A model generated the notes under the pieces. It did no database searches. It was not told the DNA's origin and worked only from the letters and a program-made list of their open reading frames with translations. This document shows, in pieces, positions 7,691 through 46,246 of a stretch of 64,000 nt of DNA (position 1 is the first letter of the stretch; each line of letters opens with the position of its first letter). The stretch covers positions 5,230,510 through 5,294,509 of the forward strand of contig OZ316892.1 in the NCBI GenBank assembly GCA_973895155.1. The letters are read 5' to 3'. A program made the translations under genes and the position numbers. The stretch is from Marsupella aquatica (taxonomy: Eukaryota; Plantae; Marchantiophyta).

Positions 7691-7699
7691 TAGAAAGGA

Positions 7700-8110
7700 T
7701 ATATATCACGCTGCCAAAAAACAAAAAGTGTCCAACTGGGAGACATGATCCCACAAGCAAAGGACCCAATCAAGGGGGGACAACCAAAGGGCCAAGAAAG
7801 GCCAGGACACAAGGAAACTAGAGAAAAATAATAGACTAAGGCCAGAGGCCTAAAGCCTACTGATCGGCAAACTGAAGAGCCTGGTACAACTCCGGTGTGA
7901 ACTGCATAGGAGGGTCAAGCAAAAGAATCCTACTAGAGACTCTAAGACCAACAGCCTCACCCCTACGAAGAATAGTGAATGCTTGTGCCCGCTGAAGCAC
8001 AACAGACACCCTCTGCCTAAAAAATGCAGTGATGATAGACACCGGGGGATAAGGCCTCCGCTCGACGTACTGAACAGCGCAAGAATGTGGGAAACAGTGA
8101 AAAAGTACTT
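7700..8110 (-). mobile_element. 3' fragment of an RLE-type (CRE-like) non-LTR retrotransposon, copy 1
   Basis: The translation PPVSIITAFFRQRVSVVLQRAQAFTILRR resembles the C-terminal QRxSxxxQR helix of restriction-like-endonuclease retroelements. Homologous copies lie near 44.4 kb and 54.7 kb. Confidence 0.6.
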
Positions 8111-11100: not shown

Positions 11101-11559
11101 ATTAGTGGAGAGGTCACGGAGCCGGATTTCTATTGACAATCCATTCCGACTGCAACTTGAGGTACTTCTGGAATGTCAGTTTGGCTGAACTCGAAAATGA
11201 AGTTGAAACAATTATTTAATCCATACAACCGGAGTACACCTTCCCTTCACTTGCACAAGCGAATTGATATTCAACCTCTCTTCGAATTTTGAGTTCTCGT
11301 CAATTGTTCAGCACTTTAGTATCGAACCCTTCGCCATGTTCTAAATATTTTCACTTTCTGCTCATCAGACAATCTTTGAGGACCCCATTCTCATTTCCGA
11401 GCAGCTCGTTTTAGAGATTTTCCAGATTCTAAGTGTAAGCGGTCTGCCGATAACCTCTTCGCTCATAAATGATACAAATTTAGGCTTGAGAGTGAACTTT
11501 TGAATTTCGACGTCAGTGTGACAAGATCCACGGAATAGCTGTGCAATTAGAATCTACGC

Positions 11560-13858
11560 ATGATCGGTAGGACAGGGTCAAGAATGCAGCGTTTGCAGAT
11601 ACACGATCTCAAACCAGGGCTCAACAAAGTACTACTCGCTATGGGTTTAATTACTGCGGAGCTGCTTGGTTTTCGGATCAGGCCCATCGATTGTCACCCA
11701 GCAACGACTGCAGCTGATAATCCACTTCCTGCTTGGGCTCTTACAAATTGGACCGACTCGCATGCCACATTCTATGGAGCACCCAATGCAGAAGGAACGA
11801 TGGGTAGGGACTTTAATGCCGCTTCACAATTCTACCTGTGTCTGTGTGATGTATGTTGCTCTCTGTTCTCGATCTTCTAAGCCCAGAATAATTATAATGT
11901 TCATCTAGCGAACTAATCAAAACAGCTTTTAACAAACAGAATCTCATTCGCTCATTTCCCCAGTGATTGAGATTAATTGATGAATCTTTTGGGGGACACA
12001 AACACAGATAGACAATGCGCTCAATTGCACAACCTACTTCAGATTCTGCATTTCCTTGCTCTGGACTGTTGAGGTGATGATCCAAAATCTATTGAGATCA
12101 TCAGCACGACTCAATTTTAGAAGTCTATGTTCATATTTCTCGAGTTTCAAGGTAAACTTGTGAATTCTCATATCAGCACCACTCTCGTGTGATTTCCTTG
12201 AGAAACTCACTGAAGTGTAAACTTTCATGAAATCATCAGCACAACTCATTTCTAAAAGTATCTGTTCATGTCTTTCTGAACTCTAGCGAATGCCTTGAAA
12301 GTTGAGGTGAAGTGTAAGATTTTATGAAATAATTAGCACAACTCAAGTTTAGAGCTATATTCTCATATCTCTCTTCACTCTCTAATCGTTTCCTTGAGAG
12401 GGGAGGGAGGTCCAAGGACATTGACGCAACATAATATTGCAGAGCGTTAGAAATTCTGCTGGTGGAACATGAATTGTATATGAAAAGGTACCAATTCCTA
12501 AGCTCTGGGGAGTTCTGCTTCTGAAACAGTTGCCATGATTCTGAACATCAATTAATTTTGAGCACTTCGAATTTTGCTGTCGTTGCCATTAGGTGGTGCT
12601 TGCGGGTACGGGAACACATATTATCTAGGCTATGGCATCAGCACTGCTGCTCTCAGTGATACCCTCTTCAACAATGGGCTGACCTGCGGCGCCTGTTTCG
12701 AGCTCAAGTGCAAACGGGACACCGAGCGTGAGTCAAAGTGGTGCTACGAAGACACCGAGTCCATAATCATCACTGCGACAAACAGCTGTCCTCCGAATTG
12801 GGACAGACCGACAGACAATGGAGGATGGTGCAATCCCCCTCGAACGCATTTCGACTTGTCGTTCCCAATCTTCATGCGCCTCGCCGTCCCAGTGGCTGGA
12901 ATTGTGGAAGTTTCATACCGCAGGTTTGAGGCTTGACAACCCTTTCATGTCCGTTTCTCAACTTGATTTCAAGCCAGAAAACACATATGATAATCACAAC
13001 CAAAACAAAAGGAATAAGACTGAAGTAGAAGAAAATCCAGTCGAATCGTATGAAACCGAAGAAAATTCACCCGAATCATATGAAATCGAAGAGTGCTGGA
13101 TTCTAGAAAGGAGCTACAACCATCACGAAATTGCATTCACGGCTGTCATTTCAAAAGTCATCGTGATTGGTCGTCCTGGGAGCATGAGGAGCTGCTGATT
13201 GAGTACATTCCTCGTTCACTGCTTCTCTTTTCCCCACTCAAGTACGAGGTGGGTTCTCAATTGGGACTGGTAGTATTACCAAATCATGGAGACAACAACA
13301 AAGAGATGCACCAAGGGAACCCCTCTTTTGGCACATAATATTGGATAACAAAACGTACATCGTGCTTGGTTGATTTTGAGTTGATGCTTGTGCTCAATTA
13401 AAATGGAGGGTGTTGGATATTTGTGTTCGCCGATTGAGCTCTTGATCATTCATGTCAGTAAGGTAATAATTTATGTTTCGATGTCGAAAGTTGAAACAGT
13501 ATCTTGGATTTAAGGATTAACCAAAGAAAGCATCGCCGTGGTGTACAGAGTGCCCTGTTCTCGGCGGGGAGGAGTTCGTTTCACGATCATGGGCAACCGG
13601 TGGGCCAGTCTGGTGCTTGTTCACAACGTCGGTGACGCAGGGGCTGTGAAGTCGTTGGAGATCAAAGGGTCACCCACAGAATCATGGCTCCCAATGACCC
13701 AGAACTGGGGCCAGATCTGGGAGGTGAGAAAGGAACTGTTCAACCAGTCGCTCTCTTTCCGAGTCACTATAAGCAACGAAAAAACTATGGAAGCCTGTGA
13801 CGTCGTACCCCAAAACTGGCAGTTCGGTCAAACCTTCGAAACCATCACCAACTTCTGA
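11560..13858 (+). CDS. EXPA: alpha-expansin; exons about 11560-11803, 12593-12923, 13549-13858
   Basis: HATFYG...GTMG|[45 protein letters not shown]|VPC, NWGQIW, WQFGQTF. GT-AG introns at the conserved EXPA positions with matching phases (1 and 2). The start codon (11560 or slightly downstream) is uncertain. Confidence 0.96.
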
Positions 13859-14766
13859 AACACGTGTCTGCTATCAACCCTTGCAGGCTTGCACACTGTA
13901 CGCTTTTGATTGTGTGTCTCTCTTTTCCCACTCTGCAGTAAAACATTCGAGTCTTCGTCATGAAGTCTGTGTATTGCCCTGAACAGCAGAAGCTCAGAGG
14001 CTAAATTTCCAGAGTTTCTTAGGTGTTGGAGCAGCCACTTGTATTCAGACTACAGTCGTAAACATAAATGCCTGGCTTGTTGTACCCTAGAGATTTCCGC
14101 CACATAAAGTTTTCAACTTATCCGAAAGGTACGATTCATTGATTATTCATCCCTATCGATGAGAAACTCAAGAAAGACTACAATACTACAGTATAAAATT
14201 GTAGTATTGGACACGGTCTTGTCGACAGAAGTCAACAACTTACGAATGTCGGTTTCCTAATCGAGACCACCCTTTGTTCCAGAGAATTCACAGTCTTCCA
14301 GCTTCGGCACGTTGATGTCAGCATCATCAGAGCTTGAGGACATCACTGGCTGGAAATCTCCACACACAGTACAATAATGGATGTACTACACTTGACGGTT
14401 CCTGGTCGATCGAGACTCAGTGGCTCACTCCTTTTGTGAAGCCTTTAACACGTGTGTGGTTACCTTCTTCGAAAATATGATGGAGAAGTATGTTTAAAGT
14501 TCTCAGTACTGTAGTGGTTCCAAGGATAATACAATGAATGAGCCTTTTTCCTTTTGCCTCGAAAATTTTGAGCAGTTCATTTCAAGAAACAGCTTACAGC
14601 AGTGATTCTCCCTTCTTATATATCTTTGGGTGTTTGCCACTTGAGGTTTAGCAGACGAATCCCACCTGATGAGGAACTGAAGTTATAGTGAGCCTGGCCA
14701 GGCTCTTTAAAAAAGTCAAGTCACAGCTCTGGATGTCGTTCACTGAATGCCATGAATTCCCACCTC

Positions 14767-14966
14767 GGACTTGAATTCGTCCCTGGCCTTGACTCGAAAC
14801 CCCTCTTCAATTCATTTTATCCAGAAGCAGTTGATGATAGTTCTGCTGCTCCGACATGTGGAGATTTGGACTTGAATTCATCCCTGGCCTTAATTTGAAA
14901 ACCCCTCTTCAAATCATTTTATCCAAAAGCAGGTGATACCAGTTCTGCTGCTCCGACAAGTGGAGA
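14767..14966. repeat. tandem duplication, about 100 bp x2
   Basis: GGACTTGAATTC...GTTCTGCTGCTCCGACA.GTGGAGA occurs at 14767 and 14868. Confidence 0.85.
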
Positions 14967-15814
14967 CTTATTACAGGATTATCCTGCAACTGACTCGATT
15001 TGCTAAGGCCGGAATATAGAGGTGTATACGAATCCACCTGTGTTCGAGCTACAGGGTAACCGTAAATTTATGGCTTGCTGTTCCGGTAAGTATTTTGCCA
15101 CTTGAGAGAGCATGTCGAAAGAGTGCAAATCGGAGCCCATGAGGAAGTGAAGAGTTTGATGAGCCGTGCATGCCTAATGATCTGTCCTGGAGGCAAACCA
15201 CTTCAGAGGCAATTTGGTGAACGACATTCTACTAATCGACAACATCTTCGTACCTCCAAACAAAAGTCAGTCAGTTTCCCTTCAATCATTTTTCTAAAAA
15301 GCAGATCTTTGCTTATTGCTCTGAATAGTAGACTCTAAGCAAGTAAACAGCGTGCTTCTCCAATTGAGCTTCGTCGGCGTTGGCGAAGCCACATGTGTTC
15401 AAGCCACAGCAATCCTCATTTTCTAGCTGACTGTTTTCTTCGTTGAATATGCCGCCACGTGAGAGCTTTCATATCCAAAGATCACGAACCCCAAGAAGAT
15501 GAAGAAGAGTAATCAGAGCCATGCATAGCATAATAGCTATAGGTCAAGAAAAGTTTGGTGAACGTCTCCTCTCCTGATTTCAAACCCAAACAGAAATCGC
15601 ACTTTCTCTCTTCCAAATTCCGACACGTTTTGTCAGCATCATTACCAAATGGGCACGAACAGATACGAATGTTGTAAAGATGAACAGGCAAGGCCCTGCT
15701 GAATTGAGATCCCCAGGCCAAAGCGATCACCGCCTCCCTCTCGTGCAGAGCACCCTGTAGAGACCCTCTCATACGTTCGTTACCAACTTCCAGACGAAAG
15801 GGCATTTGATGTTC

Positions 15815-16510
15815 ATTTCACCCTATTACAGTACGTGACTGCACTGTTCAATGATTCAAGCAACGCGCGCACACGAATGCTTCTCTCACTATGCAAGAGG
15901 CCCACGGCAAATGTTACCCTGCGCAAGGGATTCGAAGTGACTTCAAATGACAAATTTAAATGTAGACCAAAGCGACCAGCTGGAGCAGGGCACTATGCAG
16001 TTTGTTCCCCGCAACTTTCATGCAGTGAGAGACTCCAACGCTTTCTCAGTCACCAACTTCAAAAGAACGGCTGCAATCCACCCTAAACTACATTACCTGA
16101 CGGCATCGCCAACGATTTCCGCATGCACACGAATGCCTCTCACAATGCACAAGGCCCAAGGCCTTCTTTCCCAGGCAGTGGGATTCATGGAAACTCCAAA
16201 CGACAGATTGAGGATTCAATGGAGTCGCTCAACAGCTCGCTTAGGGTACTACACAGTTCGGTCTAAGCAGCTTGCATACAGAATTGCAGAGAAAAGTATT
16301 CGCCACATTTTCCTTACTGGCCTCCTTCCAAAGAACGGCTGACCTTATTTCACCCTAAACTAATCTACAGTACTCCCTCACGTCCTCAGTGCTTTGCTCA
16401 ACGATTTGCGCATGCACACGAATGCCTCTCACAGGCCATGAGGCCCACGGCAGCACCTACGGCCTGAGCCAGGGAATTAATAGCGATTCAAAGAAACTCC
16501 AAACGACGGA
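15815..16510. repeat. degenerate tandem repeat, about 265-bp period x3
   Basis: CACCCTA...GCACACGAATGC(C/T)TCTC...AGGCCCA recurs near 15820, 16080 and 16350. Confidence 0.7.
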
Positions 16511-19643: not shown

Positions 19644-19980
19644 GAGGGTTATGCTCAATAGACCCCCTCCAGGAGAAACTTTACTTGATCAGCCCCCTCC
19701 AAACTTTTTTGCCCCAATCAGCGCCCTCATTATGGCCCGTACCCTTTGCTCCCGTGTAAGGCAGTTTCCCCCGTGTAAAGGCCTTACTGCACAGTTGGGA
19801 GCCATGTCACCACGCAGGGTTGCCTCCCGTAGTCGACCACGCGACTCCGCTGCATTCGGGCCGCAACTACGCGGTTTTCCCCCCCTCGCACTATGGTCCC
19901 TTATGAGCGTGAATACATCGTGGTTTATGTCTTCAACAAAATTTCTGTTTAGGGCGCACATTGTCGGGGCGCACATTGTC
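19644..19980 (+). repeat. MULE left TIR
   Basis: Reverse complement of 41420-41755 with about 7 differences by manual comparison. Confidence 0.96.
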
Positions 19981-22320
19981 AACCGCGACCGTCATTTGTC
20001 GAGGGTGGGATCGATAGTTCTTCGTTGTTTTACGGAGGGGACTGCGTCTTTGTGGTTCATGGAGGTGAGGCGTCGTTTGCTGCTGGCGGCTGGCGATTCT
20101 GGGGAGGTTCATTGATCGATGCGAAAGGAGAGCGCGAGGTCTGAGTCTCGGCCCACTGCTAGGATCGAGTAGCGTTCATTCACCCCATTCTGCGAGATTT
20201 CTTTCACATTGTAGCGCCTGCCTAATTGTTGGTGGGTTTTGGATTGGTGAGAGTGTCTCCCTTTGTTGTTCTTCACTAAGGTATGGAGGATTGTCCGCCC
20301 GCCAATGTAGCCCAAGAAACTGTTTAATCATGCATATCATAATCTCTCTTGCATTATCTTCGCCTTCTCGTCGTAAGTTCTTCTGCATTGTTCAGATTTG
20401 CATTAGATTAGTTCAGATCATTTGCAGAGTCTCCTTGTTCTTGTGCGTTTTTGTCACCATGAAATCCATGTACTCCGGTTCTGCTGCATAGTTGCCTGCG
20501 AGCTTTAGGCAAAGTGGACTTCACGACAGAGATTAATCTCCATCCCACTTGAACCCGCCTGTATTTGTTTCTTGGTCGAAGCATTAGGTTGATTTCAGCT
20601 CTTTTTGCCTAAGTATGAGTTATGCTGCCCTGTTTGAATACCAAGACATCTGTGTGTTCTAGTTTTGCTTATATCTGAACCTGTTCTCTTCTTGGTTTGG
20701 TCCAGCTATCATGAGAATCGCCTCTTCTTGTGTTCTTGTTGCAAACATTGATGGGCTGTTTTGTTTTCGTGAGAGTATCTTCCTTTGTGCTTCTTCCAAA
20801 GGAGATTGTCCGTCAATGTCGCCCAACATACTGTTTCCTGCCTTTTTTGCATCATGTCGATGCGCAGAATACCATTACCTGAATGTCTCTTGCATTCTGC
20901 AATTTTTTAGCCTTAGCACCATCACATCCATGTCTTTCGGTTCTGGCACTGTATAGTTTCAATATTACGTGGATAATAGTGCAGGGACTGTTTCCATATG
21001 GCAGTTGAATCCTATCCATTAACGAGTGCAAAGCAGTACAGGACAAAGGTCAAGGTCATAGGCTGGAGAGGTTGGGTTTGATTTTGAGCCCAACCAAGGT
21101 TCAAGCTCAGTTTCCATGGCACCACGAATGAGAAAAATTCAGGTAGCAGAGGAAGAGAATCACTTCTGACATCGTGTTGATGGTGAAGGCAAGCATATGT
21201 TTGTCTGCATAGCTGGTGCTCACAAGCCTCGGTCATTCTCTTCCTTTGCTGGTTTCCAAACCCACATGGACGTCACACACAAATTGGAGTTACCACCTGC
21301 ATTATTGGAGGCGGGCCAACCTTGGTTGTATTCAAAATCCATCTTCTCCACTCGGATTGCCAAGAAACATAAGGGCCATGGGCCAAATGCAAGGAAGGAC
21401 AACAATGAGGCCTCTTGGAACCGACTTCGATCTACTATGCGACTTCGATGGAGACAGACAAAGTTGCGAAAAAAGACAATGCTAAAGAAGAAGTATGGTG
21501 TTGTTGCAGATCAGCCGCTTGTTCCTACAAAATCATTGCTCATTCGTGTCATCAAGCAAGTGTACATACGTGGAGGGCAGCCGAATGGTTGGTCATCCTT
21601 GTTGGATGACAATGTGTATGAGATGTTGCAAGACTCTGTGTCAGCTGCTGCAATTACTCCTATTCTATGTCACTGGGTTGCTTCAATCCAAGAATTGCCG
21701 GTACTTCTACCTAGAGATCGCAAGTTGCAGGCACTTCAACTAGATTGTCGTGTTCTGCCATGCATTTTCCCCCGGCCGGATGTGGAGGTGCAACCTCTTG
21801 AGCTGATGCAGTTTGAAACTATTCGAGATGCTCTCATTTCAAATGCCTTGAATTACTTGGCTCAGAAAAGAGCGCTTTTACAGTGGAAGCATGGCCCCAA
21901 AGAAGTCAACTTTGAAGCTGCATACCAAGATTACATGGAGTGGAAAGAAGAGCAAAAGCCTGTCAGCATAGCCACAGCCACTAACAATTTGCTGCAGGAA
22001 TACAAAGGTCGGGGCATGACCACTGAAGCTGCACGAATAGAGGTATGACCTTCTTATTTTACTTCTTGCAATCTTTGCTTATTGTTTGTACATTCCATTC
22101 TCATCATATTGTCTGAACCATGTGCAGGCTGGACTAAATGAAGAGTGGGAGGACACGTCTGACGATAGCGATTATGAGCCTGGGCCTGAGAAGTGGGGTC
22201 TGTTGCTAAATGATGCTGATCAACAGCCAGATGAGGCAAACACAGTATCTGAACCTGTCCTCAGTACTTCGATCAGTTGAGGACCCGCCTCTTGTACAAG
22301 ATCCTATTGAGGTTCCTTCT

Positions 22321-23358: not shown

Positions 23359-23855
23359 CACTACAACATATTTGACACTTTTGCGAAGGTATTTTTGTCG
23401 ACGCTCTTGTATTTCCGATGGGCGGCGCTTTGCATATTTTGCGAATCAACCCGCATCGCAATTTGCGATTCTATCCCTATCGCAAATATAATAGCTGAAG
23501 CGCATTATATCGCTAATAAATTGCGAAGTAAGTGGTTTTGCAATTTTTACCGAAATGCGTCGAATGGAAAGGCACCTTCCGAAGACGGAAAAATCGCTCG
23601 CCGACTCCGAAACTAACTCATGTAAATATTTGCGAAGAATATTGGATTGAAAATGTTTTGCGATAGTAGTTGTTTGACAAGTTTAAGAATGTCGGAGGAT
23701 GGAAGATTTGCGAAACGCTGAAAATATGAAATTTGTGATTGATTTTGCATCACAAGTTTGCGAAGAGTGTAGTATGGAAATATTGAGAAACGAGAAGCTT
23801 CATATAAATTGCGAGTCCGGTGAGAGTTTGTGAGCTTCGCAAATTGTTCGCAAAC
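23359..23855. repeat. CACTA left TIR and subterminal TTGCGA(A) repeats
   Basis: About a dozen TTGCGA/TCGCAA copies in both orientations. Confidence 0.88.
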
Positions 23856-24319
23856 TAAAAATTAAGGTTATTGTGAGGTGAGACAATGAAGAGGGTGGAT
23901 GGTCCAATATATGGATGGGGCAGGAGGGAAGAGGAAGGGAGGATGGAGGGAGGTACAATGAAGGATGGAAAAGGGAGGGAGTACAATGGAAGAGGAAGGA
24001 GGGAGGAGAAAGAGGAAGGGAGGAGGAGGGACAAACGTACCACGGAGGAGGGAAACACGAGGGTGAGAATGAAAATTATGGAATAAGTAGGAAATAAAGT
24101 TATATTGAGCAACAGAGGTTAGATAGAAAGTTGCATGTAAAATTCACAAGTGATCACAATAAAACAATACAATACATATGTCATGAGTATGACTCATTCA
24201 AAAGTGAATGGCAAATATAAATATAGACAATCCTTTTTTTTATATCACCAAACATGAACAAATCAAATATAACATGAACAAATGTCTAGGCTGGACCCAA
24301 GTGCATATAAATATGTCCC

Positions 24320-27300
24320 TCACACTTGGTCCTCATCGGCCTCAAGGTCATCTAGGTCTGATGCAATAACATCTGGCTTCTCAGAAACAATGGAACGAGA
24401 ACGTGGCACATAGGTGATGACAATTGACCACTCGGTGTCTAAGGGGTATGGAATGTAGAAACATTGCTCCAAGTGTGATGGGAAAGCAAATGGTTCTAAC
24501 GTTTGCCAATGAGATGCTTGAACACTAGTGGCACTTGTCTTCAACCGTGTAAACCCACTCTCATCTTGAAGTACAGTGCAATTTTGACCAACAAGGTTCA
24601 CTTTGAACCACTTGCACTTGAAGACATATTCCTCAAACTTTGAATGGTTGTCATATGATACCACCAAGATCTCCTCTATCTTCCCATAGTGTGGCACAAC
24701 ATCTCTAACAATGTTCCTGTCATGGCGGCTGCTTCTGGAGTCTTGAGAAAATTCCCCTTGAACTCCACAATCAAAAGTACGACCCCTCTTCTCATCAAGG
24801 GAAGAAACCCTAAAATTAACAAAACCCACAAATTTTTATTGCACTATAAAAGATACCATTAATGTAATAATCATCAAAATATGACACCCATCCCTAAATA
24901 GCCAAAACCCACATGGCCTATGGCATAAATATAGAAGCCAACATTACAGTTATGGATGTCATTAATGATAATAGAAATTTTTTAAACAATAGAAATAACT
25001 AATCAAAATAAGGTCTACATGAATTAATAGAGGAAGAAAGGTTAGGTACTAGTGGACCTGAAGTGTCTCCCTTGTGTCCACATAGCCGTCTTGGATGTCA
25101 CCACTCTCAAAGGGCCATGAACAATGGTCCGAACGTCATCTGTGATGGTAAGAAAGTGGGACACATCTCCTCCTTGTGTCACCATGTCATCCAACTCAAG
25201 CAACTTTTGCTTCATATACTCATGCATCTTAGGAAAAATTCTTGCTCTTTGACTTGTTCTCTTGGCATTATCATAAAACTCTCTCCATTTCTCCATGATA
25301 TTACTATTACTCAACATAAATGTTGTCAATTGTGACCACTCTGTTGATGTCAACATGCGTGTTTTTGTACTCAACATAAATGTTGTCAATTGTGACCACT
25401 CTGTTGATGTCAACATGCGTGTTTTTGTGACACCTGTTAAACGGTCCTCCTCCTCTTCTCTTTCCTCCATCCAAGTACGTGGACAAGTAGGATCAATGGT
25501 GGCCAAGATGTTACTACAATAAAACATACTCTCTGCTGCCAAGTATCCTGTAGCTATGCTTCCCTCCACCCGTGCACGGTTACGTACATAAGCCTTCAAC
25601 ACCGCCATGTAACGCTCAAGCCAATACATCCATCTACAATGCACTAGACCTGCAATGGCAAGCTCCCGCACAAGATGCACAAGTAAATGAACCTGACAAT
25701 CAAAGAAGGAAGGAGGAAGGGCTTTCTCCAACTTGCATACCACCTCAGCTGCCAATACCTCCATCCCAGGGATCTCTTCTACATATATCTCCTTTGAGCA
25801 TATCCATCTCAACAAACGACCCAATGACCAGATGGCATCTTGCACTTCTTCACTCCCTATACCTATAATTGCCACTGGCAATATATGCTGCAATAGGCGA
25901 TGATAGTCATGTGTCTTCAGATATCGTGGCCACTTGTGATTGTCCTCCATCCCAAAAGCTTTTCGAAGGTTGGCACCATAGCCTGTAGGAAACCGCATCT
26001 CTCCTATACGGTTCCGAAATTCACGTCTTTGGCCAACACTCAACACCCAAGGAGCAGAAGGACGATTCTCCACACCTGTGATACGATCAATTGTCACCCA
26101 AACATCTGGATGCATTTCCATCTCCTCGCATGCCTCCCTAAAATTAGTGTCCTTCTCCCCATAAAAATGCTTTATCAAAGCCTTCCCCACATTTCCCTCA
26201 ATGTGCATGGGGTCTAAAAGATGGCAGATCTTCAACTCAGACCAATAGGGCAAAGTGGCTAGTATACTCCACCTGGTCAAACCTGTCCTATCAAAGGTGA
26301 AGGAATCATTTGGGTCTGCCACCCTATTAGCTAGTGACTTCCAATGTGCAAAACTTGTTGCATCAGGAATTTCACGCTCATCACCAAATGGCATGTCAAA
26401 GGAGGAGAATAGAAGTGGGTCAAACCTCATCTCATGCCCCATGGGAAGAAACTTTGTATGCCCAATATAAACAATCTTTCTAATCCATGAACAATATGTG
26501 GCCATGTCCTCTAAGCTTGGGCCACAAGTAGAGCAAGCTTTGTACCCCTGAGTTTGCAATCCAGAGACAAAACCAAACCCTGCTTACATAGAAGAAATCA
26601 AACCATGCAAACTTTATGTTAGGGTTGTCACATGAGAAACATCAATAGGAACTACACATTATTGAAGGGTTGCAAATGGCATGGAAGTCATCTTACCAGG
26701 ATAGTCATGCATTGTCCAACAAATGATCCCTCTCAATTGAAAGACACGTGGAAAACCTCCTGTAATTTTCCTGCCATCATATGCCCACACTCCATTCCAT
26801 AATTTTTGAAGTTCTCCAACCAATAGTGCCAAGTAAGTGTCAAAGTTCTTCACCTTTTTTGGACCTGGGATAATCAAAGACAATAAAAGGAACCCCTTCT
26901 TCATGGATAGCCATGGTGGGAGGTTATAATTCATGACAACCACAGGCCAAACTGATGTAGGTTGCCCCTTTCCTCCAAGTGAATGAGGGCTAACTCCATC
27001 AGATGCCAATCCTAGCCTCACATGGCGAGGATCATGTGCAAAGTCTGGCCATGTTGCCTCAATATGTTTGTGAGCAGGGGAGTCAACTGGCAACCGCATG
27101 ACACCAGACTCTAATCGATGAGTCTTATGCCATACCATCAACTCTGCCAAGTCAGAACACCGATACATGTGCAACAACCGAGGAATGATGGGAAACCAAC
27201 GAACAGCCTTCCTTGGCACCTTCTTTGTTAGCATGTTGGGGTCATAGCGAGGCTCATCACATGTTGTACATTGTGTCATGTTTGCATTGGCCTCATGAAA

Positions 27301-29199
27301 TAACATGCAATCATTCACACATGCATGAACAATATGATATTCCATGCCAATAGATGAGAGAACACTCTTTGCCTCCTTCCAAGTTGCTGGCAACACATTC
27401 TCAGTGGGCAACATAAGGTCATGGCAAAGTGCAAACATATCAGATAACAAGGCATTGCTTGCCTTGTGTTTGGCCTGTAGGTTCATCAACCCCAAGATGG
27501 CTGAAAGACGACTCAAACGAGCACCCTCATAGATAGGTGTTCGGGCATGTTCCTCTGCTTCTTCCCATTGGCATTGTCCCTCAGGGGTATGCCTTGGGCG
27601 TGGATCATTGGGGGGCACCTGCCCTTCATTGGGAAGATCATCACCAAGGTTGTCGGCACCAAACCAATCAACCATAAAGTCATCCATGGCTCTATCCTGG
27701 TCATCAGTTACTTGTTCATCCGTCCGAGGTACCTCTTCATCAGGGTTACTGCTTCCACTAGCACTTGATGAGGAGTGTGACTCTGATCCATGTCCTTCTT
27801 CTGGCATACCCATTTCTCGATATGTTGCTCTCAATCTCCGTGGTAACATATTTGGAGAGGGTCGCACATTCTAAAAACAAAGCAAACAATTGAAAGTTAT
27901 ATTGCAAAGAGAACACACACAAAAATGGGCTAGGGGTGTGCAAAAATGTAATAATATTGGTTGTGGTGCAAATACAAAATGTGGCCAAAGGCCATATGTA
28001 GTGCCCTTTCATATGCAACATACCACCTATGACCCTTAACTTAACCCTAATCCCACTCATAGTGAGTAAATAACTCATCCCCTGAGTTAATGGTCCTTGT
28101 TGCTACAACTAGGCAATGGTCATGATGATATGTCTGGCCATAAGGTGCTGGCGGAGGACCCTCAATGAAAACCCACTCACAATTTTGCCTACGCTTAGGG
28201 CGAGTCCCCACGGTACTGTTTATGAAACCAGCAATATTCCCAGTCCGTATGGGGTCCCCATCTATGACACGCTGCTCACTATACCTTCTAGTGTTTCCAT
28301 CAAAAGTATCCATGTCCAATGCATAAGTCTTCCACTCAGGGTGTTGTGCAAGGATCATGTTCCAATGTCTTCTCTTGTAGATGGGTCCACCATAAGGAAA
28401 CAAAGTAGGCCCCTCTCGGCCGCGTCCACCTCTACCACTCTCGGCGTCCACAATGATGTCCTCACAGGCAAAAACTCCATAGCCATGTCTATCCCCAAGT
28501 GTGGAAGGTTTGATAACCCAACGTCTACCCCAAACCTCTACCTCCGCACCGTAGGAAAGCTGTTGTGGCAAACCAAGAGTCTCAGGATCCCAGTCCTTGA
28601 TGATAGGGACACATCTGCCAGTGAACTCACAATCACCCCACCGACCCGTAACCACTGCCTTGTACAAATCAGTATCCCCTCGGGCCCGCCTCTTGGAACG
28701 CTTTCTCCCTCTTGGGACAATAGCCTCAACCCCAACTTCCCTAGGACTGGTGGGCCTTGCCGCTAGACCCAAGGCTTTTGAGAATGCATTGCCTATAGCA
28801 TCTAGAACACCTTGTGATGGGACATAGGGTGCTTGTGCCGCAGGTCTAGGCCTATTGGATACCTATTCCACCGAAACCAAAACAAACAAAAGTAGGTGTG
28901 AAATTGCAAACCTTCAACCATTGAGTAATGGGAATAGGGTAGGAAAACTAAGGCATAACACTTACCATATGAGATGAAGAAGCCCCTGCCGTATGACATC
29001 CACAACGCCCATATCTCTCAATATGTTGGGCACATATGTAAGATTTTTGGGAAACCTGACCCACACATCTGGAACATTCACAAAGTTGACGGGGTGGACC
29101 GCGAGGAGGAGGTGCGGTCGTGTGATGTTGAGGTGGAGGTGGTGTATCTTCATCAGAGGAGGACGAGTCTGTGGTGGAGATTTCAGAAGATGAAGACAT
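24320..29199 (-). CDS. CACTA transposase (TnpD/Tnp2-like), predicted 1139 aa; exons 29199-28966, 27870-26697, 26579-25058, 24809-24320
   Basis: CECSRC...H N-terminal motif; HACVNDC...CTTC; RLGLASDG; SVWPVV...YNLPP; DYPG|F...GYKACSTC; LDPMHIEGN; LKTHDYH; HLLVHL; RWMYWLER; VEGSI; HYGKIEEI; FKCKWF; EPFAFP. Splice phases 0/1/2 are consistent and no stops were found. Confidence 0.93.
25308..25427 (-). repeat. perfect in-frame 60-bp tandem duplication in the transposase
   Basis: TKTRMLTSTEWSQLTTFMLS is encoded twice. Confidence 0.95.
28047..29199 (-). CDS. SET-domain protein (putative lysine methyltransferase), predicted 349 aa; exons 29199-28966 and 28862-28047
   Basis: SET motifs in order: IKPS...GYGVFA, PYGG, YAL, IDG...GNIAGFINS, NCEW, VATRTINSGDELFTHY. 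Basic NLS-like RGRKRSKRRAR. A 103-bp GT-AG intron (28965-28863) joins the exons in frame. Confidence 0.85.
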
Positions 29200-30497
29200 A
29201 TCCCCTGTAACAAGATATAATTAAAATGGGCATGTTATGACCAAAACATACCACAAAATGATATAAATCAAAGTTCCCAAATAATGATGACAAGAAACCC
29301 AAACCAAAATGACCATAGCAATAAAAAAGGTACCTTTATGAGACCCGGGCTCAGCAGTGCCAATAGCTCTTGTGGCTCTAAGATAATTAATGAACCCAAT
29401 CTGAAGTATGAGGGAAAAGCTGCAACCATTCCATGTATATGTAAGCACAATAATCTGGACCAGACAAGAACAAAAAACCCTATATACATGTCCCCTTTAT
29501 ACATAGTGGCAACCAAAAGTGTTAAGTACATGAAAGGAACACTTTAGCCGATCATGCAATGTTTACCTTTCAGATGCCCGGGCTCTCACAATGCATATGC
29601 ATTAGTATCAAATCATCAAAAAGTGCCGCACCCTGCAAGCTATCATATATTCCCCTCCTTTGTTAGCAAAACCCATGCCAATCCCCTTTTGATTCATAAA
29701 CCCAATGAACCTCTCTTAAACCCAAAAGGCTGCAATATAAATCTCATGAAACCTTGCTTTGTCTTATCCAAACCTTCAACCCCAAACCGCATCCTACCTA
29801 TTAAACCTAAATCTGACTTACACACAAACCCAAACCTTTCTTCAACCCTAGAGACCTTTCTATTTAAAAACCCCAAACCCTAAAACCCTAAACCCAAACC
29901 TTACTTATTTCTTGTAAACCAAATCCCACACCTTTATTATTTCTTCTAAACTAATGTAAACCCAAACCTTAGCCTAAACCAACACCATACATAACCCATT
30001 AACCTGAAATCTGCCTAACCCTTCAAACCCGCCTTCAACTATTATCTAACACCCAAAACATGGCCAAAAAGCATTCCAAATATGAGTATAGAGGGGTCCA
30101 CTTCACCTTTGAAAAAAACCCTTTCAAATGAAACCAACATTCCCCCAGGACGAGTTGCCAATGTCTTGCGAAGCCGCTTCCTTCGCAAATACCATCACAA
30201 ATTAGAATTGAGGTTTGCGAAGTTGCTGCTTTCGCAAGACCTTCAGAAAAACAGAGCCCGAGAGCATTTCTGCGAGAGAGCGAAGGTGTTGCGAAGCCTT
30301 TCACGTCGCAATGGTTTCGCAAAATTGAGAAACTATATGCGAAACAAGAAGAATCGCAACTTGCGAAACGGGTTGCTTCGCAAGTCTTTCCCGCTTGTAC
30401 TTTTGCACTCGGCCGCGGTGTACTCAGCGGCATTTGACAAATTTCAAGCGTAGGGAGGGAGAAGGGAGCTCGCGCGCGCTCGGGGGGTGGCTTGGCT

Positions 30498-32466
30498 ATG
30501 GATTCCAGTGGAGCAAATGGAGGTGATAGGGCAGGGGTGAGTGAGAGTGGCAATGGGAATGAAGGCAATGGGGAGCAGGAGAGGAATCGATGGACCGATT
30601 TGATGGCTGAGCACCTCAATGCAGCACAGTTGAGCCACTTAGATTTGACTACACCAGCAGGGATTGCTTCTTTGAGTGCAATCCTTGGGCAAGCCTTGCA
30701 AACGGGAGTAGATGCAGGGAACATTGCAAGGGAGGAGGAGCAAAGGAGTGCAGCTCAACAGAAGGCAAGAGAGAAGAAGCGTAAGAAGGAGGAGAGGGCC
30801 AAGGCAGGAGTAGTCTCACCTGTTGCCCTAGAAAAGAAGAGGAGGAGAGAGGAACGAGATGAGATAAGAGCACAGCGGGAGGAGCAGCAAAAGAAGGAGG
30901 AAGAGAGGAAGAAGCTGCCTATGATTGCCTTGATCGAAGGCATTCCTACTGAACTGGCCTACACCGGGGCAAAGAGCACTATCAGGCTTATGGTGCGCTC
31001 CAATTTTGCACGAGGAGTTGAGTGGGGGAAACTCAGCAAGGCAAACCAGAAGAAAGTAATGAGTCAAATCAAAGATTCATTTCGAAATGGAGCAGAGATT
31101 GATGAACAGTGGCTTGCAGATAGAATTTCCAATTCAATGTCTCAAGCACGGTACCATGATAGGAAGAAGGTAAGGGCCTACCTGGCAAACTTGGAGGAGT
31201 ACAGAAATGTGAGGAGGCCACTGCAATTCACTGAGGACGTGTGGAATGCCTTTTACAAAGTGGAGGTGCAGATGAGAGCTGCCAGGAACCTTCTCTTCTG
31301 GAAGGAGATGGAAGCCAAGGCACAGAAGGCCGGGAAGTCCGACCGAAAGCTCAAGGCAATGGCTGAGAAAGTGTCTCACATGCAGCACATTGTGGATGAA
31401 GTGGGTGCACCACCCCAAAAATTCATCCTTGCAGCTGAGCGAGTCAGCAAACGGCCCAAGACCACGCACAAGATGGGCCAAGGTGGACTTCCCGGCCTCA
31501 AAGCACACTTTGTGAGTGGGCCCTCTCCTCTCCTCCCTTGCTTCTGTTTCCTTGCTTTCAATTGCTATCCAAACCTGCAATGCCCCCCTGCATACCTCTT
31601 GTTTCTTTCTTACGGCCTGCCTTGTACTTTAGGTCACCCTGACACATTGCGTGCCTTAGAGATTTCTCGGAATTGTTTAAAAACAGAGTTTGCGAAGCTT
31701 TTGCGATGTGGGTTGCTTCGCAAATGTTTCGCAAAGTCTATCATGGCATTTTTTAAAGTTGTAAATGCGAAGCTATTGCGAAATAACTCGCTTCGCAAAC
31801 TACTTCGCAAACAGCCAATTTATTTGAATTTGCGAAGTGGGGAGTTTCGCAAGTGTGTATTATGTTTTAAAAAAACCGCTAAGGGTTATTGAGCCCAATT
31901 TTGTGTTAGGGGCACCCTATTAGCACCTCCATGCATTTTTCTTGGGTTTATAGCATATTAACCTCGATCTATTTTGGTTTTGGAATGTTTGGTTGTGGTA
32001 GTATAAGAGGTACCGCAGGAAGATAACAGCAAAAGAGATGGAGATAGGAGCTGCGCATGGAGCCAAACATCTCTTTGACTTGGTTGACGCAGAGTTGGCG
32101 ACTGTAAGTGCATGTATCCCCTTCAGTTTTTCCCACCCAATCCACTTATCTTTTCATTCCGTAAACCTAAACCAATTTGGCGTTGTGCTGCGCAAACAGG
32201 ATGATGAGGATGCCATCGATACCAGCAGCACCGATGAGAACAATGAGGGGACCACGACAAAGGGGCCCAAGGTAGGAGGGAGTAGTGGATCTGGACCAGT
32301 AGGAGGAGTTTCCCAGCAGGAGGGGGAGGAAGAGGATGAGGATGAGGACGAGGAGGAACCAGATGTGGAGGAGCAGCCAGCACCACCTCCTGTGCCACGT
32401 CCGGATCTTCGCAAGAGGGACAAGGGGAAGAGGCCGGCGACAAGGAGTAGGAGGACCCCATTCTAG
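30498..32466 (+). CDS. CACTA second gene (TnpA/ORF2-like DNA-binding protein); exons 30498-31511, 32002-32103, 32200-32466
   Basis: Open frame with a coiled-coil/basic region, W...F...W...RP..FTEDVW and THKMGQGG motifs reminiscent of CACTA ORF2 proteins, and an acidic tail. Phase-0 GT-AG introns. It is divergent from the transposase. Confidence 0.72.
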
Positions 32467-32714
32467 AGCTTGGTGGTGTAGTGCCTATGGGATGCCCATT
32501 TACTTAGTGTAGTATATAGTTTTGATATGGGTAGTCTTATAGGGACCTAGCTTGTCATATGACACCCATCTAGGGTTTAGGGTTTAGGAAACCCTAATTT
32601 TTGTGTACCTATCAATTTTCTATAAAGCAATTTTGATTCAGACCTCATTCTCCGTGTTGGACGACAAGACCCCAACCATAATTCAAAACTCTAAATCTAA
32701 ACCCTAGCCTCAAG

Positions 32715-33149
32715 ACATCTTGCGAAACCTATGCGAACAACCCAATTCGCATATTTACCATATTGAAGGTATCGCAAACATTATGCAAACCACATACGTT
32801 CACAAAAATGCGAAGCCATGTTCATGGCATAACTACCATTAACTTAATATCGCAAACCGATTACCAAACTTCTGGGATTGCAAATATTTAACTGCTTGAT
32901 TATTATCGCAAGCCTCTCGCGACGCCCACGGAGTCGCTTAAATGTGAGTCCTTTGCGATTCTATTAGTGTCGCAAGTTGCAAAGGCGTTGCGAAGGTCTT
33001 GCGAAAGACCGGATGCGAACCTTTGGGCTTCGCAGTTTGCGATTCTATTGCGATGTGCGATACTTCGCAAAGGCGAGTTTTGTTTTTTGATTTCCTTTGT
33101 TGTTTGCGATGCTTTCAAGTTCGCAAAAGGTGTGGGTAGTGTTGTAGTG
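32715..33149. repeat. CACTA right subterminal repeats and TIR
   Basis: Dense TTGCGA/TCGCAA copies ending in TGTTGTAGTG. Confidence 0.88.
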
Positions 33150-37032: not shown

Positions 37033-40000
37033 CTAGTAAGGTTCAGTAATATCAACATGATATTGTGACCCAAATCCTTGACAGTGTATTGCAGCCTCAT
37101 TGGCCAATTCCATGCACCTATCAATGAAAGCTTGTGGCAATTGTTGTTCACTATTTGGGAGAAGGGGCTGAGGCACAATGCTCTGGATTGGTCCTGTGTC
37201 TGTTGTTGGTGCTGTCAATTCAATACTATATTCAGTCTGTAGTAGTTGGTCTTCCCAAGGAAAGGGTGACACAGGTGGGTGCTCCAAATTGACTGCATCA
37301 CCATTATCCACCTGCATATGAAGGCAACTTTAAAATTTGTCCCTAGCATGAGACCACACATGCATGAAGCCCACAAGTAATGATATATACTTGTAAGAAG
37401 ACTGTTAATGTTGGAATCCTTACTCTTGCCGGATCTATTGGCGTCACACTATGGACTTTATCACAAGATCTTTGGTTATGTCCAACCTGCCCACACTTAC
37501 TGCACCTGCACTTCCCAGTGTTAGGCCCCGCTTTCTTTGCCCTCGATTGAACTTGAACAATTGGAAGTCCAGCAATAGTGTTTGCTGTTGAAAAGGGTTC
37601 CACCCTATTTGGATCATCATCTAGTGGATATCTCAAGAATAGTTGTCCAAGGGAGTCAATCACTTATTCTTCGCCTTCTCCAAGAGCCCTAGGTGGATGC
37701 CTCCCTCCACGACCCTGTTCGATGCGGACCATTCTATGTCTGCCCCTTTTCACAGCAGCCACAGGAGCAACACAATTTGGACTTGGCATTAAGTCTGATA
37801 CAATAAAGCTAGGTAAAACATTGTCATACAAAGCCCTAATTGAAGCAGTCCGCCAACATTTGTGAAAATGAGCAGAATTTTTTTTGCCTTCCTGGTCATC
37901 CCAAGCCATTATATGCTCACATGGCCACACCCTTTCTTGCAGCTCCCAACAAGTGCAACATTTCTTTGGTGACAGTGACACTAGATACTCCTCACTTTGG
38001 GATGTAGTTTGAACCTTGGCTGTGGACGCACCATCATCAAACACCTGAGCATATGAAAACTTGGATATAATTACAAAACTATTCAAATAAAGAATACATT
38101 CATACTAGTGTATTTTAATTGAACACAGAGCTATTAAGAAGACATTGATGTTACAGTATATACAGAACACGTAGCTAGTAATGCATACACAAGACCAGGC
38201 ATGAAGATTACCTGCCATTGACCAAACGTCTTGAGATTCTTGTTGTACCTGACCAGGGCTGGAATAGTGAGTACTTCCTGTCTCGCCAACGCAACTGCTT
38301 TCTTTTCTTTAAACTTTTGCTGAACATATACCCACATGCGCTCCATCAACTTGCAAGGAGCAAATTTGCGCAAGGGGAGTAAGCCTGAATTTGCTTGCTC
38401 AGCAGGGTTGCTTGTAACCTTTGCCATGCGGGGAAGTGGAAAGGCATGCCTGGCATAAATTTTTGCATCAAAACTTCTGATGTAGTCTACAGCATTTGCA
38501 TTCTCATGTGCCTTGACGGACTCTGCCAGTCGCTTCAAACATGCTTCAAATCTGATACAGGTTCACAGGGAAAACATTGATGTTAATGTATACAATCATG
38601 TCATACACACAGAAAACACTTGTGTGAGTGATATGTACTTCACATTCTGTATTCGAGGAGAGGTAATATTACTGTATTGAACACTGAGTATGCGCTATAT
38701 ACATAAGAAGACAAATGTATGTAAAATCAAAGCAATGAAGGTTTTTGGACTTACTGTCTTTCATCGTTGGCATATATGCATCCTGTAAAAATATCTGCTG
38801 CTGCTTTGCCATGTCTGTTCTTGACATTAGCTCTCAGGTGGTTTGCACATGCTGCATGTATCTTACCTGGCCATACGTAACTCACAACGGCAAGTAGACC
38901 TTTTTGTCGGTCTGATATGAGTGGCATGTGAGGCGATTCAATGCCATACAATGATCTATCTACCAATTCCAGAAACCAGATCCAATTATCTGTGTTCTCA
39001 ATTGGAGCTACTGCGTAACATAGAATCAATCCTTGGCCATTTCCATCCAAACATGTAGCTAAGAATAGTTGAGTGGGGTACTTCCTGTTCTTTGTATGAC
39101 ATGCATCAAGAGAGATGAGAGGTTGAATGTAGGTACATGCTTTTCGTATAGCTGATGGGCAAATGAAAGCTCGACAGAAAACGTTGGAGTTTTCCATTGG
39201 GGACCAGACTGCCACTGCACCAGGGTCAGTCTCTCTCACCCTGGCAATTAATTCCGAAATCATTTGAAACGTGTCTTCCTGCCCACCAAGGTGCAGATCC
39301 CGTACATAGTCTTTTGCTCGCCACATTTGGTGGTAAGTGCTGTTCTTTTTATAATCCCCTTGAAATCCGTAGAGTAGTTCTTTGACCGGCACCTTCAAAT
39401 TTCTACACACTCTAGGCGCCAGTGTGTCTCCTAACCACACTGCCTTTTGTGTTGGGCCCCTCCACTCTCCACTTGTGTTTAGATACTGGACAATTGTGTT
39501 TCAGCTCACACACAGTAATGATATGAGCCCCGCTGTGAGCTTGCCAGTGACATCCGACCCTGAATGGGCAGTAGGCTGAACAATCTAAACCATCTTCATC
39601 GTACTGTGGTGGGGGCCTAAACCTAGAAAACTCCCCGCATACTCCTGTGGTAGAAATCTTCCTGACTTTTACCGTGCCAGGGGCATGTGACCCAGGTAGC
39701 CACACATTGCTATGCTGCACTACTGTGTGTGGTTTCTTTGCCATTGTTGTGTTCCTCTGGAGACAGTTTGGATCCAGAGGTCCAAGGGGTGCACGAACCT
39801 CCTATTGCAATCCACACAGAACATATTCATGTTATTGTATATGGAAACACAGAAGATAGTGGTGTCATTGTATACAAAATACACACCACAATGGGGATGT
39901 TTATATGAAACATAGAAGACACTCATGACGTCGTATACAAAACATTGATGGTAAAATGCAAAGAAGACATTCCTGTTGAGGTATACCTGTGGAGCATTTG

Positions 40001-41419: not shown

Positions 41420-41755
41420 GACAATGTGCGCCCCGACAATGTGCGCCCTAAACAGAAATTTTGTTGAAGACATAAACCACGATGTATTCACGCTCATAAG
41501 GGACCATAGTGCGAGGGGGGGAAAATCGCGTAGTTGCGGCCCGACTGCAGCGGAGTCGCGTGGTCGACTACGGGAGGCAACCCTGCGTGGTGGCATGGCT
41601 CCCAACTGTGCAGTAAGGCCTTTACATGGGGGAAACTGCCTTACACGGGAGCAAAGGGTACGGGCCATAATGAGGGGGCTGATTGGGGCAAAAAAGTTTG
41701 GAGGGGCTGATCAAGTAAAGTTTCTCCTGGAGGGGGTCTATTGAGCATATCCCTC
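41420..41755 (-). repeat. MULE right TIR
   Basis: Inverted copy of 19644-19980. The inner end carries GACAATGTGCGCC(C/T)C units, three here versus two on the left. Confidence 0.96.
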
Positions 41756-45490: not shown

Positions 45491-46246
45491 TCACCAACTG
45501 CGACTGGCAGAGTTGGATTGGGAGGTGGATCTGCTCCTAGATCGGTTAAGATTGGGAAAGTTATTAGGATTACGGTTGTCCATCTGGGAAATCTCTTCCA
45601 AATGCGGGAGGAGGTCTAAAAGTTGTTGATCTCTCATGTCATCAATAAAAGAGCTAATAGGAATGGCATTAGCTGGCTGCAACATGTAGGAGTGAGGGCT
45701 ATTATCAATGATGATGACCTTAGAGAGATCCCGGCCCAGCAAGGTGAGGTCCTTCACCAAGCCTCCTTCAATTGGCCTACAAGACTCACGATATCTTCTG
45801 AACCTGATAGCATTATGTTTGTCCAAAATATCCAGCAATGGGTCTGCATACTTTCTCAAGCTTGCTGTGAAGATGACTACCTCAAATACCTTGGCCATTG
45901 CCTCTAAGAACCTATCCACCCCTGGCCGTTTTATCACATATACACTGCAAGGCTTTCCCTCAACCTCAACCGTGATGTTGAAGTCATAGTGGGGGACCAC
46001 CTTGAATGATGAATGAACTAAAGTTTCATCTAGGTCAAGTACCAGTGTCTTCCGCCCATCATGGTCTTGGCTCTGAGGGGGCAGGCGAGCATATTCCTCA
46101 GGGCCAGGGGGCTGGCCCTGACCTTGACCCACTTGCTGGCACTCACAATTGCTACTCGGGTCGCATCGACCACCACTATTTTGTTGTTGTAAGTTCACCA
46201 GTTCTGAATCACACTCAGCTACCTTATTCACTTGAAAGCATTGCAT
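45491..46246 (-). CDS. CTD small phosphatase-like (NIF/FCP1, HAD superfamily) protein
   Basis: KTLVLDLDETLVHS (DxDxT), KRPGVDRFL, VIFTAS..KYADPLLD.LD, RYRESC, KDL..LGRDL, IIIDNSP, NAIPISSF. The catalytic domain is intronless; the true start is uncertain. Confidence 0.93.
   Translation of the reverse strand: MQCFQVNKVAECDSELVNLQQQNSGGRCDPSSNCECQQVGQGQGQPPGPEEYARLPPQSQDHDGRKTLVLDLDETLVHSSFKVVPHYDFNITVEVEGKPCSVYVIKRPGVDRFLEAMAKVFEVVIFTASLRKYADPLLDILDKHNAIRFRRYRESCRPIEGGLVKDLTLLGRDLSKVIIIDNSPHSYMLQPANAIPISSFIDDMRDQQLLDLLPHLEEISQMDNRNPNNFPNLNRSRSRSTSQSNSASRSW

Follow-up and report, generated by a model that had tools for sequence, protein, structure and literature searches.

SET domains have been described in several groups of DNA transposons. 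In the EnSpm/CACTA superfamily, PAG2 of the red-algal Plavaka elements contains a SET domain (PF00856) for which a role in chromatin was proposed, without biochemistry in the part of the preprint that deals with it; Helitrons with captured SET domains are mentioned in the same source (bioRxiv 10.1101/2025.02.11.637652), and SET genes have been reported in HarbingerS and oomycete MuDR families (PMC12730594). In the accounts cited here, none of these published SET-bearing transposons is shown to methylate anything or to alter its own chromatin. Alternative splicing of a single plant Spm transcription unit is reported to supply both the transposase and an accessory protein, and the main text of that report mentions no SET domain or methyltransferase among 962 Spm proteins (bioRxiv 10.64898/2026.08.24.746577). 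VANC, an anti-silencing factor encoded by a VANDAL transposon, is described as binding motifs in non-coding regions (PMC10398659). Here we analyzed a stretch of 64,000 nucleotides from the liverwort Marsupella aquatica (contig OZ316892.1, positions 5,230,510 to 5,294,509; hereafter the window), in which a complete CACTA transposon carries an exon coding for a SET domain. Comparison with its relatives indicates that this exon has long belonged to a bryophyte (moss and liverwort) CACTA transposon and has been kept there by selection.

The original prediction knew of no described plant CACTA family with a SET gene. No publication dealing with such an exon in CACTA elements of land plants was found, although subscription journals, Repbase Reports and bioRxiv supplements may hold one. 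SET-bearing transposons as such are published, including Plavaka within the CACTA superfamily.

A complete CACTA element carrying a SET exon

The element covers 9791 bp (23359-33149) and is delimited by a perfect 10-bp terminal inverted repeat (TIR), CACTACAACA, at 23359 and 33149, and by a 3-bp target-site duplication (TSD), ACC, on both flanks. Among the 52 x 67 pairs of CACT[AG] ends around the genes, this pair was the only one combining a 3-bp duplication with a perfect 10-bp TIR, and two others reached only 7 bp. A matching empty site was found in the next host repeat unit, near 33400. The left end was also present in loci L007, L008, L030, L040 and L042, with four different left flanks among these five, and the element in L030 was complete as well (6243-16135, about 9.9 kb, ACA on both sides, right TIR with two mismatches). 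CACTA-type TIRs, a 3-bp TSD, TnpD domains in one open frame and subterminal repeated motifs were all present, as in CACTA/En-Spm elements. The ends, the duplication and the empty site bear out the initial placement of the SET exon inside a TIR/TSD-defined element. The features of the minus-strand gene are as follows:

23359 to 33149, no strand: complete CACTA element, TIR CACTACAACA, TSD ACC
28966 to 29199, minus strand: exon 1, with ATG, a Ser/acidic stretch, a zinc-ribbon-like CxCxxC-x13-H motif and the phase-0 donor GTAAGT
28047 to 28862, minus strand: SET exon, 271 codons plus stop, phase-0 acceptor, recognized by Pfam, structural model and alignment
26697 to 27870, minus strand: TnpD exon after the SET exon, Transposase_21 (E 7e-39), phase-0 acceptor
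25058 to 26579, minus strand: TnpD exon, rest of Transposase_21 plus DUF4218
24320 to 24809, minus strand: last TnpD exon, DUF4216

The matches to Transposase_21, DUF4218 and DUF4216 all exceeded the Pfam cut-offs.

Sequence and fold of the SET exon

The minus-strand frame 28862-28047 was open over 271 codons and contained GYGVFA, PYGG, GNIAGFINS, ELFTHY and the basic stretch RGRKRSKRRAR, in agreement with the predicted uninterrupted exon with SET motifs and a basic nuclear localization signal (NLS). The Pfam profile of the SET domain (PF00856), proposed as a check, was matched with 27.0 bits against a cut-off of 22.4 (E 6e-6), while several relatives scored slightly under it. The basic stretch was located in a linker (residues 51-61), followed by a family-specific subdomain (approximately 66-110) and the SET core (approximately 111-268). 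The chain ended 3 residues past the catalytic Tyr268, and pre-SET and post-SET Cys clusters were absent, as had been stated. The antisense frame 28113-28766 was not conserved: in 6 sequences, even the most open antisense frame across the SET core contained 3-5 stops.

A family alignment of 71 rows, reaching down to 25% identity, was used to model residues 66-271 with AlphaFold2 (mean predicted local distance difference test score, pLDDT, 93.7). Foldseek returned 319 PDB chains at E<=0.001 for this model; among the matches listed, all were SET-domain enzymes or their complexes, including SET8, LegAS4 and MLL1 at E about 2e-7. Superposition with VIA-align (root-mean-square deviation 2.6 over 124-133 residues) yielded Z values of 12.1 for Set1 and for PRC2 (EZH2), 11.9 for SET7/9, 11.7 for SET8, and 11.1 for LegAS4 and NSD2, with LegAS4 showing the highest identity in that list (26%). 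A phmmer search with the single SET protein against PDB sequences found no match at E<=10, whereas the family profile retrieved LegAS4/RomA as its best PDB match (E 2.4e-5). The top Z values lay within about 1 of each other, singling out no class among Set1/MLL, EZH2, SET8, Set2/NSD and SUV39, and Pfam scans of the window proteins and their relatives detected no class-specific domains. The exon thus encodes a SET domain of no particular class, and the target lysine is not deducible from its fold.

The residues expected to serve cofactor binding and catalysis were conserved in the family. The GxG loop (G127/G129; G129 in 66/68 rows), the cofactor Asn (N215, 63/71) and the catalytic Tyr (Y268, 57/61) were retained, as were N227 (69/69) and an aromatic residue at Y157 (Tyr or Phe in 70/70). 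In 67 of the 71 rows, Ser replaced the His of the NH motif, and on the evidence of this alignment the change is ancestral and family-wide. The suggestion that it might alter or abolish activity was not borne out: besides its prevalence, the cofactor is contacted elsewhere, by the backbone at five atoms and by the side chain of a single Asn in the SET domains described (PMC3178901), and LegAS4/RomA, which reads YINFS in the profile alignment where NHS is usual and thus has Phe at this position, is reported as an active H3K14 trimethylase (PMC10653858). The change is therefore probably harmless.

Predicted splicing of the TnpD gene

The SET exon requires an upstream exon, since its first in-frame Met is residue 169. 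Exon 1 (29199-28966, 78 codons beginning with ATG) ended 103 nt upstream of it. The CxCxxC-x13-H motif of this exon resembles the CACTA transposase-associated domain, and the start of the TnpD protein P0164 reads CxCxxC-x12-H. Profile matches were weak: PF13963 was found in 2 of 17 scanned proteins at E 0.03, below the cut-off, and not in exon 1 itself, and hhalign of exon 1 against the PF13963 region of P0164 gave E 0.0027 with a probability of 11%.

The exon 1 donor, the SET acceptor and the TnpD acceptor (27870, 176 nt past the SET stop) were all in phase 0, so that exon 1 can be joined either to the SET exon or to the TnpD exon. In the splice model, the former yields 349 aa and the latter, with all TnpD exons, 1139 aa without a stop. 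Close relatives kept the exon 1 donor GT (18/18), the SET acceptor AG (16/18) and the TnpD acceptor AG (22/25), while their introns had diverged; phases 0/0/0 were found again in L043, at 33% SET identity. From this arrangement we infer that the SET exon is an alternative exon within the TnpD gene and not a separate gene, exon 1 being common to both predicted isoforms. It is likely that joining exon 1 to the SET exon would produce a 349-aa zinc-ribbon-SET protein, and that skipping the SET exon would produce the 1139-aa TnpD. Of the predicted CACTA element with its own SET gene, the element-borne domain was retained, while the free-standing gene gave way to an alternative transposase exon that needs an upstream one.

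In public annotations, the gene models of Calypogeia, of several Sphagnum species and of Riccia also place the exon 1 motif ahead of SET. A different TnpD start, at a Met seven codons into the TnpD exon, is possible. Four Riccia gene models read through SET into TnpD; these annotated fusions, with their differing join points, look like artefacts of gene prediction. A SET-TnpD fusion was disfavoured in the window, where the four GTGAG donor-like sites in the SET exon were all in phase 1, out of frame with the TnpD acceptor. One Logan contig (P0053, 2141 nt) contained the CxCxxC-H motif and the SET domain in a single 423-aa frame; provided that gene calling on these contigs ignores splicing, it would represent either a copy without introns or a cDNA that had been spliced.

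Relatives, linkage and selection

The nearest named relatives of the SET exon were found in Calypogeia fissa (73% identity), Sphagnum (55-65%, along almost the full length of the exon) and Riccia (about 40%). Three protein searches recovered 42, 97 and 74 family members, most rows having no name and the named ones being bryophyte only. The family is multicopy, one cluster alone comprising 360 protein sequences. No conventional host SET gene was present among the named matches; the near-identical host parent that would have spoken for a captured gene did not appear there. A viral or bacterial donor was not found either, in scans that reach close relatives only (no relative in viral contigs and a single match of 36 residues in bacterial genomes). 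Two divergent family members from Calypogeia fissa (P0108 and P0122) had other N-termini, that of P0108 with small Cys/His motifs.

A metagenome scan yielded 56 loci: 42 close, 13 distant and 1 bacterial with an unrelated context. TnpD was present in 22 of the 25 close loci with at least 400 nt downstream, and exon 1 in 19 of the 22 with at least 400 nt upstream. Each of the 6 absences coincided with a SET exon truncated on that same side; in L026 the break was occupied by a retroelement, and in L036 a piece of a Helitron came next. The full order of exon 1, SET and TnpD was found in distant L043 (33% SET identity) and L055 (26%, decayed), and distant L044 had the motif exon and SET before its contig ended.

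The SET tree (16 rows) and the TnpD tree (18 rows) shared well-supported splits, which joined the window with nine close loci, united those nine alone, and set L043 and L055 apart (more weakly in TnpD). Transposases P0163 and P0164 (Lathyrus), whose records lack SET, fell between SET-linked TnpDs (midpoint rooting, 87/81), a position that weakly hints at an old SET exon lost in flowering-plant elements.

The ratio of nonsynonymous to synonymous substitution rates (dN/dS) of the SET core was 0.16-0.25 (median about 0.21) against 20 close loci, pairs that share one ancestor and hence are not independent; it was 0.11 and 0.15 for TnpD and 0.16 for exon 1. SET cores were free of stops in 12 of 20. 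The dN/dS analysis recommended with the original prediction thus indicated purifying selection, and the value of about 0.2 argues against the neutral evolution of a captured parent gene. An additional constraint on the SET exon, considered from its dS of 0.8 vs 1.2-1.5, was rejected, as four-fold sites equalled those of TnpD (33/66 vs 71/155, p 0.66).

Loci L045 and L047-L054 formed an AT-rich, mostly decayed distant SET group (24-31% identity), in which SET may have moved within the element or onto another one. Two of them (L051 and L054) shared 3.8 kb at 82%, through and behind SET, with small exons containing HHLGSGGY-like words. These words presumably recall CACTA second genes, but hhalign gave no significant support for TnpA-like exons (E 0.16).

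Palindromic sites and the divergent second gene

The heptamer TTCGCAA occurred 33 times in the window, against 6.8 expected, with 30 sites inside the element and 3 outside. Palindromes of the form TTGCGAA-N9-TTCGCAA, with no more than one mismatch, numbered eleven against 0.01 expected. They lay between 23439 and 33126, all of them in the element, and formed four clusters, one at each end, one separating the two divergent genes and one within intron 1 of the second gene:

23359 to 23860, no strand: left subterminal TTCGCAA cluster, CpG-rich, from motif counts
30100 to 30497, no strand: cluster between the divergent genes, 4 palindromes, 3 of them perfect
31660 to 31870, no strand: cluster within the first intron of the TnpA-like gene, with 3 palindromes, 2 of them perfect
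32690 to 33149, no strand: right subterminal TTCGCAA cluster, from motif counts
30498 to 32466, plus strand: second gene, TnpA-like by position only, with exons 30498-31511, 32002 or 32008-32103, and 32200-32466 (about 460 aa)

The observed/expected CpG ratio was 1.46 in the clusters (1.01 with the motifs masked) vs 0.34 in the TnpD/SET region, a retention of CpG that would fit long protection from methylation. The core TCGCAAA was found 27 times inside the element and 4 times outside, and the complete relative L030 was likewise enriched in TCGCAA (27 inside, 2 in 8.5 kb outside). This core is that of the motif CCVTCGCAAA, reported from chromatin immunoprecipitation of Arabidopsis TnpA-Spm1 (bioRxiv 10.64898/2026.08.24.746577), whose full ten letters were matched at only 2 sites. 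The clusters suggest that the element has a targeting system of the TnpA type; their use by the SET protein is conjecture.

The second gene, transcribed divergently from TnpD/SET, was conserved in 11 loci and is under selection, with a dN/dS of 0.28. It had no informative Pfam match and no Atlas match, and its structural model (pLDDT 51.6) was too poor for a structure search.

In TnpD itself, an in-frame tandem duplication of 60 bp was observed at 25308-25427, and the donor at 25057 read GTCCAC, weaker than the GTATTY of relatives. Either the duplication or the weak donor could impair the transposase of the window copy. This copy also lacked an intron at about 25985 (exon 26579-25058, codon 200), where L010, L011, L015, L025, L030 and L032 have one of about 145-160 nt near codon 200.

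Neighbouring sequences in the window

An inverted repeat of 287 bp (19694-19980 and 41420-41706, 98% complementary, 21.4 kb apart) enclosed the CACTA insertion, pieces of a Mutator-like (MULE) transposase at 38751-39500 (PF10551) and a 292-aa frame at 21170-22048 with no Pfam match. Possibly, the repeat bounds a large Mutator-like element into which the CACTA element jumped. Long frames at 1487-5642 read like gag, integrase and reverse transcriptase of what we take to be a copia-type retrotransposon, and a 275-aa frame at 45491-46318 with DLDET presumably resembles small C-terminal domain (CTD) phosphatases.

Discussion

What is established comprises the element itself, the SET fold and exon order, the splice sites in phase 0, the purifying selection, the co-inheritance with TnpD and the clustered palindromes. 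On this basis we favour, tentatively and at a little under an even chance, a mechanism in which alternative splicing gives a nuclear zinc-ribbon-SET protein that would methylate lysines, likely those of histones on the element, in favour of the element's expression. Beyond the splicing step, the SET isoform probably binds S-adenosylmethionine (SAM) and is catalytically active, with a partner or its own N-terminal subdomain replacing the missing post-SET lid. The last step is the weakest: the isoform would reach the element, either through the zinc ribbon common with TnpD or through the TnpA-like protein on the TTGCGAA-N9-TTCGCAA clusters, and would there write a mark favouring expression.

Several observations weigh against this mechanism. 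The literal signatures NHS/CxxPN and ELxF/YDY were unmatched, the window protein having INST...N and ELFTHY, and the post-SET region was absent throughout the family, with a median of 5 residues after the Tyr and 15 or fewer in 52 of 57 rows. The review consulted ascribes the shaping of the substrate groove to post-SET regions, finds one in every human SET methyltransferase and suggests that PRDM constructs may be inactive because theirs are very short (PMC3178901); the SET domain of LegAS4 alone is reported to be inactive and to bind SAM poorly (PMC10653858). The missing post-SET region, and not the NH-to-NS change, is the stronger worry and casts real doubt on activity. Because both the literal signatures and the post-SET region fail, the element is a CACTA transposon whose domain is SET-fold but not a canonical histone methyltransferase. 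Its fold is about equally near to H3K4, H3K27, H4K20, H3K36 and H3K14 enzymes (Z 11-12), and therefore singles out neither an activating mark nor, indeed, histones as substrate. The splicing is modelled, and the annotated proteins of relatives are gene predictions. Among copies themselves, dN/dS was 0.55 for SET and 0.61-0.63 for TnpD. The linkage of homologs to CACTA genes, proposed as a check, held for the close loci but for few of the distant ones: SET occurred without detectable TnpD in ten of them (L045, L047-L054 and L046), and TnpD was present in only 2 of the 9 with at least 400 nt downstream, the strongest finding here against a strict linkage. The simplest reading of the cis motifs makes them targets of the TnpA-like protein, and they carry no direct information on the SET protein. 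Furthermore, Arabidopsis TnpA is reported to activate Spm via host DNA demethylases, with H3K9me not removed (bioRxiv 10.64898/2026.08.24.746577), so that a histone writer is unnecessary for CACTA anti-silencing.

An active lysine methyltransferase could instead modify a non-histone target, such as the TnpD or TnpA-like protein of the element or a host silencing factor. We regard this as unlikely, in spite of a fold close to no single histone class, a minimal build without histone-reading modules, and a common exon 1 that could bring the SET protein to TnpD. The charge of the SET core, counted over the whole domain, is also nearly equal (20 K+R vs 22 D+E), not that of the acidic groove expected for histone-tail binding (PMC3178901). 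The basic NLS-like stretch, the nearest profile match being a histone enzyme (LegAS4/RomA) and the repeated carriage of chromatin enzymes by other transposons, in the reports cited, speak for histones, none of them decisively. A pseudo-enzyme or adaptor, whose fold would be kept for binding SAM, lysine or a partner, or a splice-made regulator acting on TnpD through the zinc ribbon, seems slightly less likely still to us. In favour of such a role are the absent lid and the family-wide replacement, in the usual SET motif RFxNH, of the His by Ser and of the preceding Arg by Gly, and each SET transcript is one less TnpD transcript. Known pseudo-SETs, however, tend to lose the GxG loop, the cofactor Asn and the active-site aromatics, whereas here the loop, the Asn and both aromatics are retained at 25-35% overall identity.

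We give a low probability to a repressive role, in which the SET protein would be an active histone methyltransferase whose mark restrains its own element. EZH2/PRC2 ties for the best Z (12.1), and H3K27me3 is reported on transposons in several distantly related eukaryotes (bioRxiv 10.1101/2022.10.24.513474), but Set1 ties at the same value, the family is multicopy (the 360-sequence cluster and the four left flanks among five loci) and the CpG-rich clusters look protected from methylation. That the SET exon is a passively captured fragment of a host gene, or a domesticated host gene beside a transposon, is very improbable. CACTA elements do capture gene fragments, and detectable TnpD was missing from the ten distant loci; the dN/dS of about 0.2, the same SET position across mosses and liverworts, the agreement between the SET and TnpD trees, the absence of any conventional host SET gene from the named matches and the location of the window copy inside TIRs and a TSD all oppose it.

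The favoured mechanism, a spliced SET isoform acting on histones of its own element, can be extended to a bryophyte CACTA kit for self-activation, in which a TnpA-like reader of the palindromes would be paired with a lidless SET protein that becomes active only once docked on element proteins and writes a histone mark. This extension, in which the palindrome core would have been kept since the split from flowering plants, is doubtful. If true, it would be the earliest demonstration in a land plant of a working histone writer encoded by a transposon, and an example of a SET enzyme that lacks the post-SET region altogether. With its intact ends, open frames and definable cis motif, the window copy makes the self-writing of histone marks by a transposon directly testable, and transformation and chromatin profiling are routine in mosses and liverworts. 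The question touches both on SET enzymology, namely whether such an enzyme can act when its post-SET region is missing, and on how old the target motifs of the TnpA type are.

Comparison with known systems

Among minimal SET proteins, those of viruses gave BFVD matches (many of them giant-virus proteins) with TM (template modelling) scores of about 0.4-0.5, and an Atlas cluster of Nucleocytoviricota SETs scored 0.96. Legionella RomA/LegAS4 likewise has a SET fold without Cys-rich flanks and lacks the His of NHS, but its activity is reported to need its own post-SET segment and ankyrin repeats (PMC10653858). These viral and LegAS4 similarities are too weak to name a donor.

SETMAR also joins SET and transposase sequences in one gene; as described, it is a domesticated primate gene in which SET is fused to a mariner transposase, whereas the window holds a mobile element in which SET and the catalytic transposase belong to mutually exclusive predicted products. 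HarbingerS, MuDR and Helitron elements are DNA transposons that code for a SET domain too, but in the published descriptions they belong to other superfamilies and other hosts, in contrast to the Transposase_21 and CACTA ends found here. VANDAL elements resemble the present one in encoding a factor of their own and in the clustering of short motifs in non-coding DNA, within the element as well, although they are Mutator-like and VANC is not described as a SET protein (PMC10398659).

En/Spm, as reported for Arabidopsis TnpA-Spm1 and TnpA-Spm3, shares with this element the partition of products by splicing (predicted here) and clustered motifs with a TCGCAAA core. In Arabidopsis Spm, sequence-specific anti-silencing is described as the work of DNA-binding TnpA through host demethylases, and the alternative product is TnpA itself, reported as restricted to flowering plants; in the window the predicted alternative product is the SET protein, and the TnpA-like gene is separate and divergent. 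Plavaka PAG2 has in common with the window a PF00856 SET domain carried by an element of the CACTA superfamily. According to its description, PAG2 stands as a gene apart, in which SET is fused with an N6-adenine DNA methylase, and is carried by elements of 17-19 kb; no DNA methylase domain was detected in Pfam scans of the window proteins and their relatives, and the SET exon analyzed here lies inside a land-plant Transposase_21 TnpD gene with a zinc-ribbon motif.

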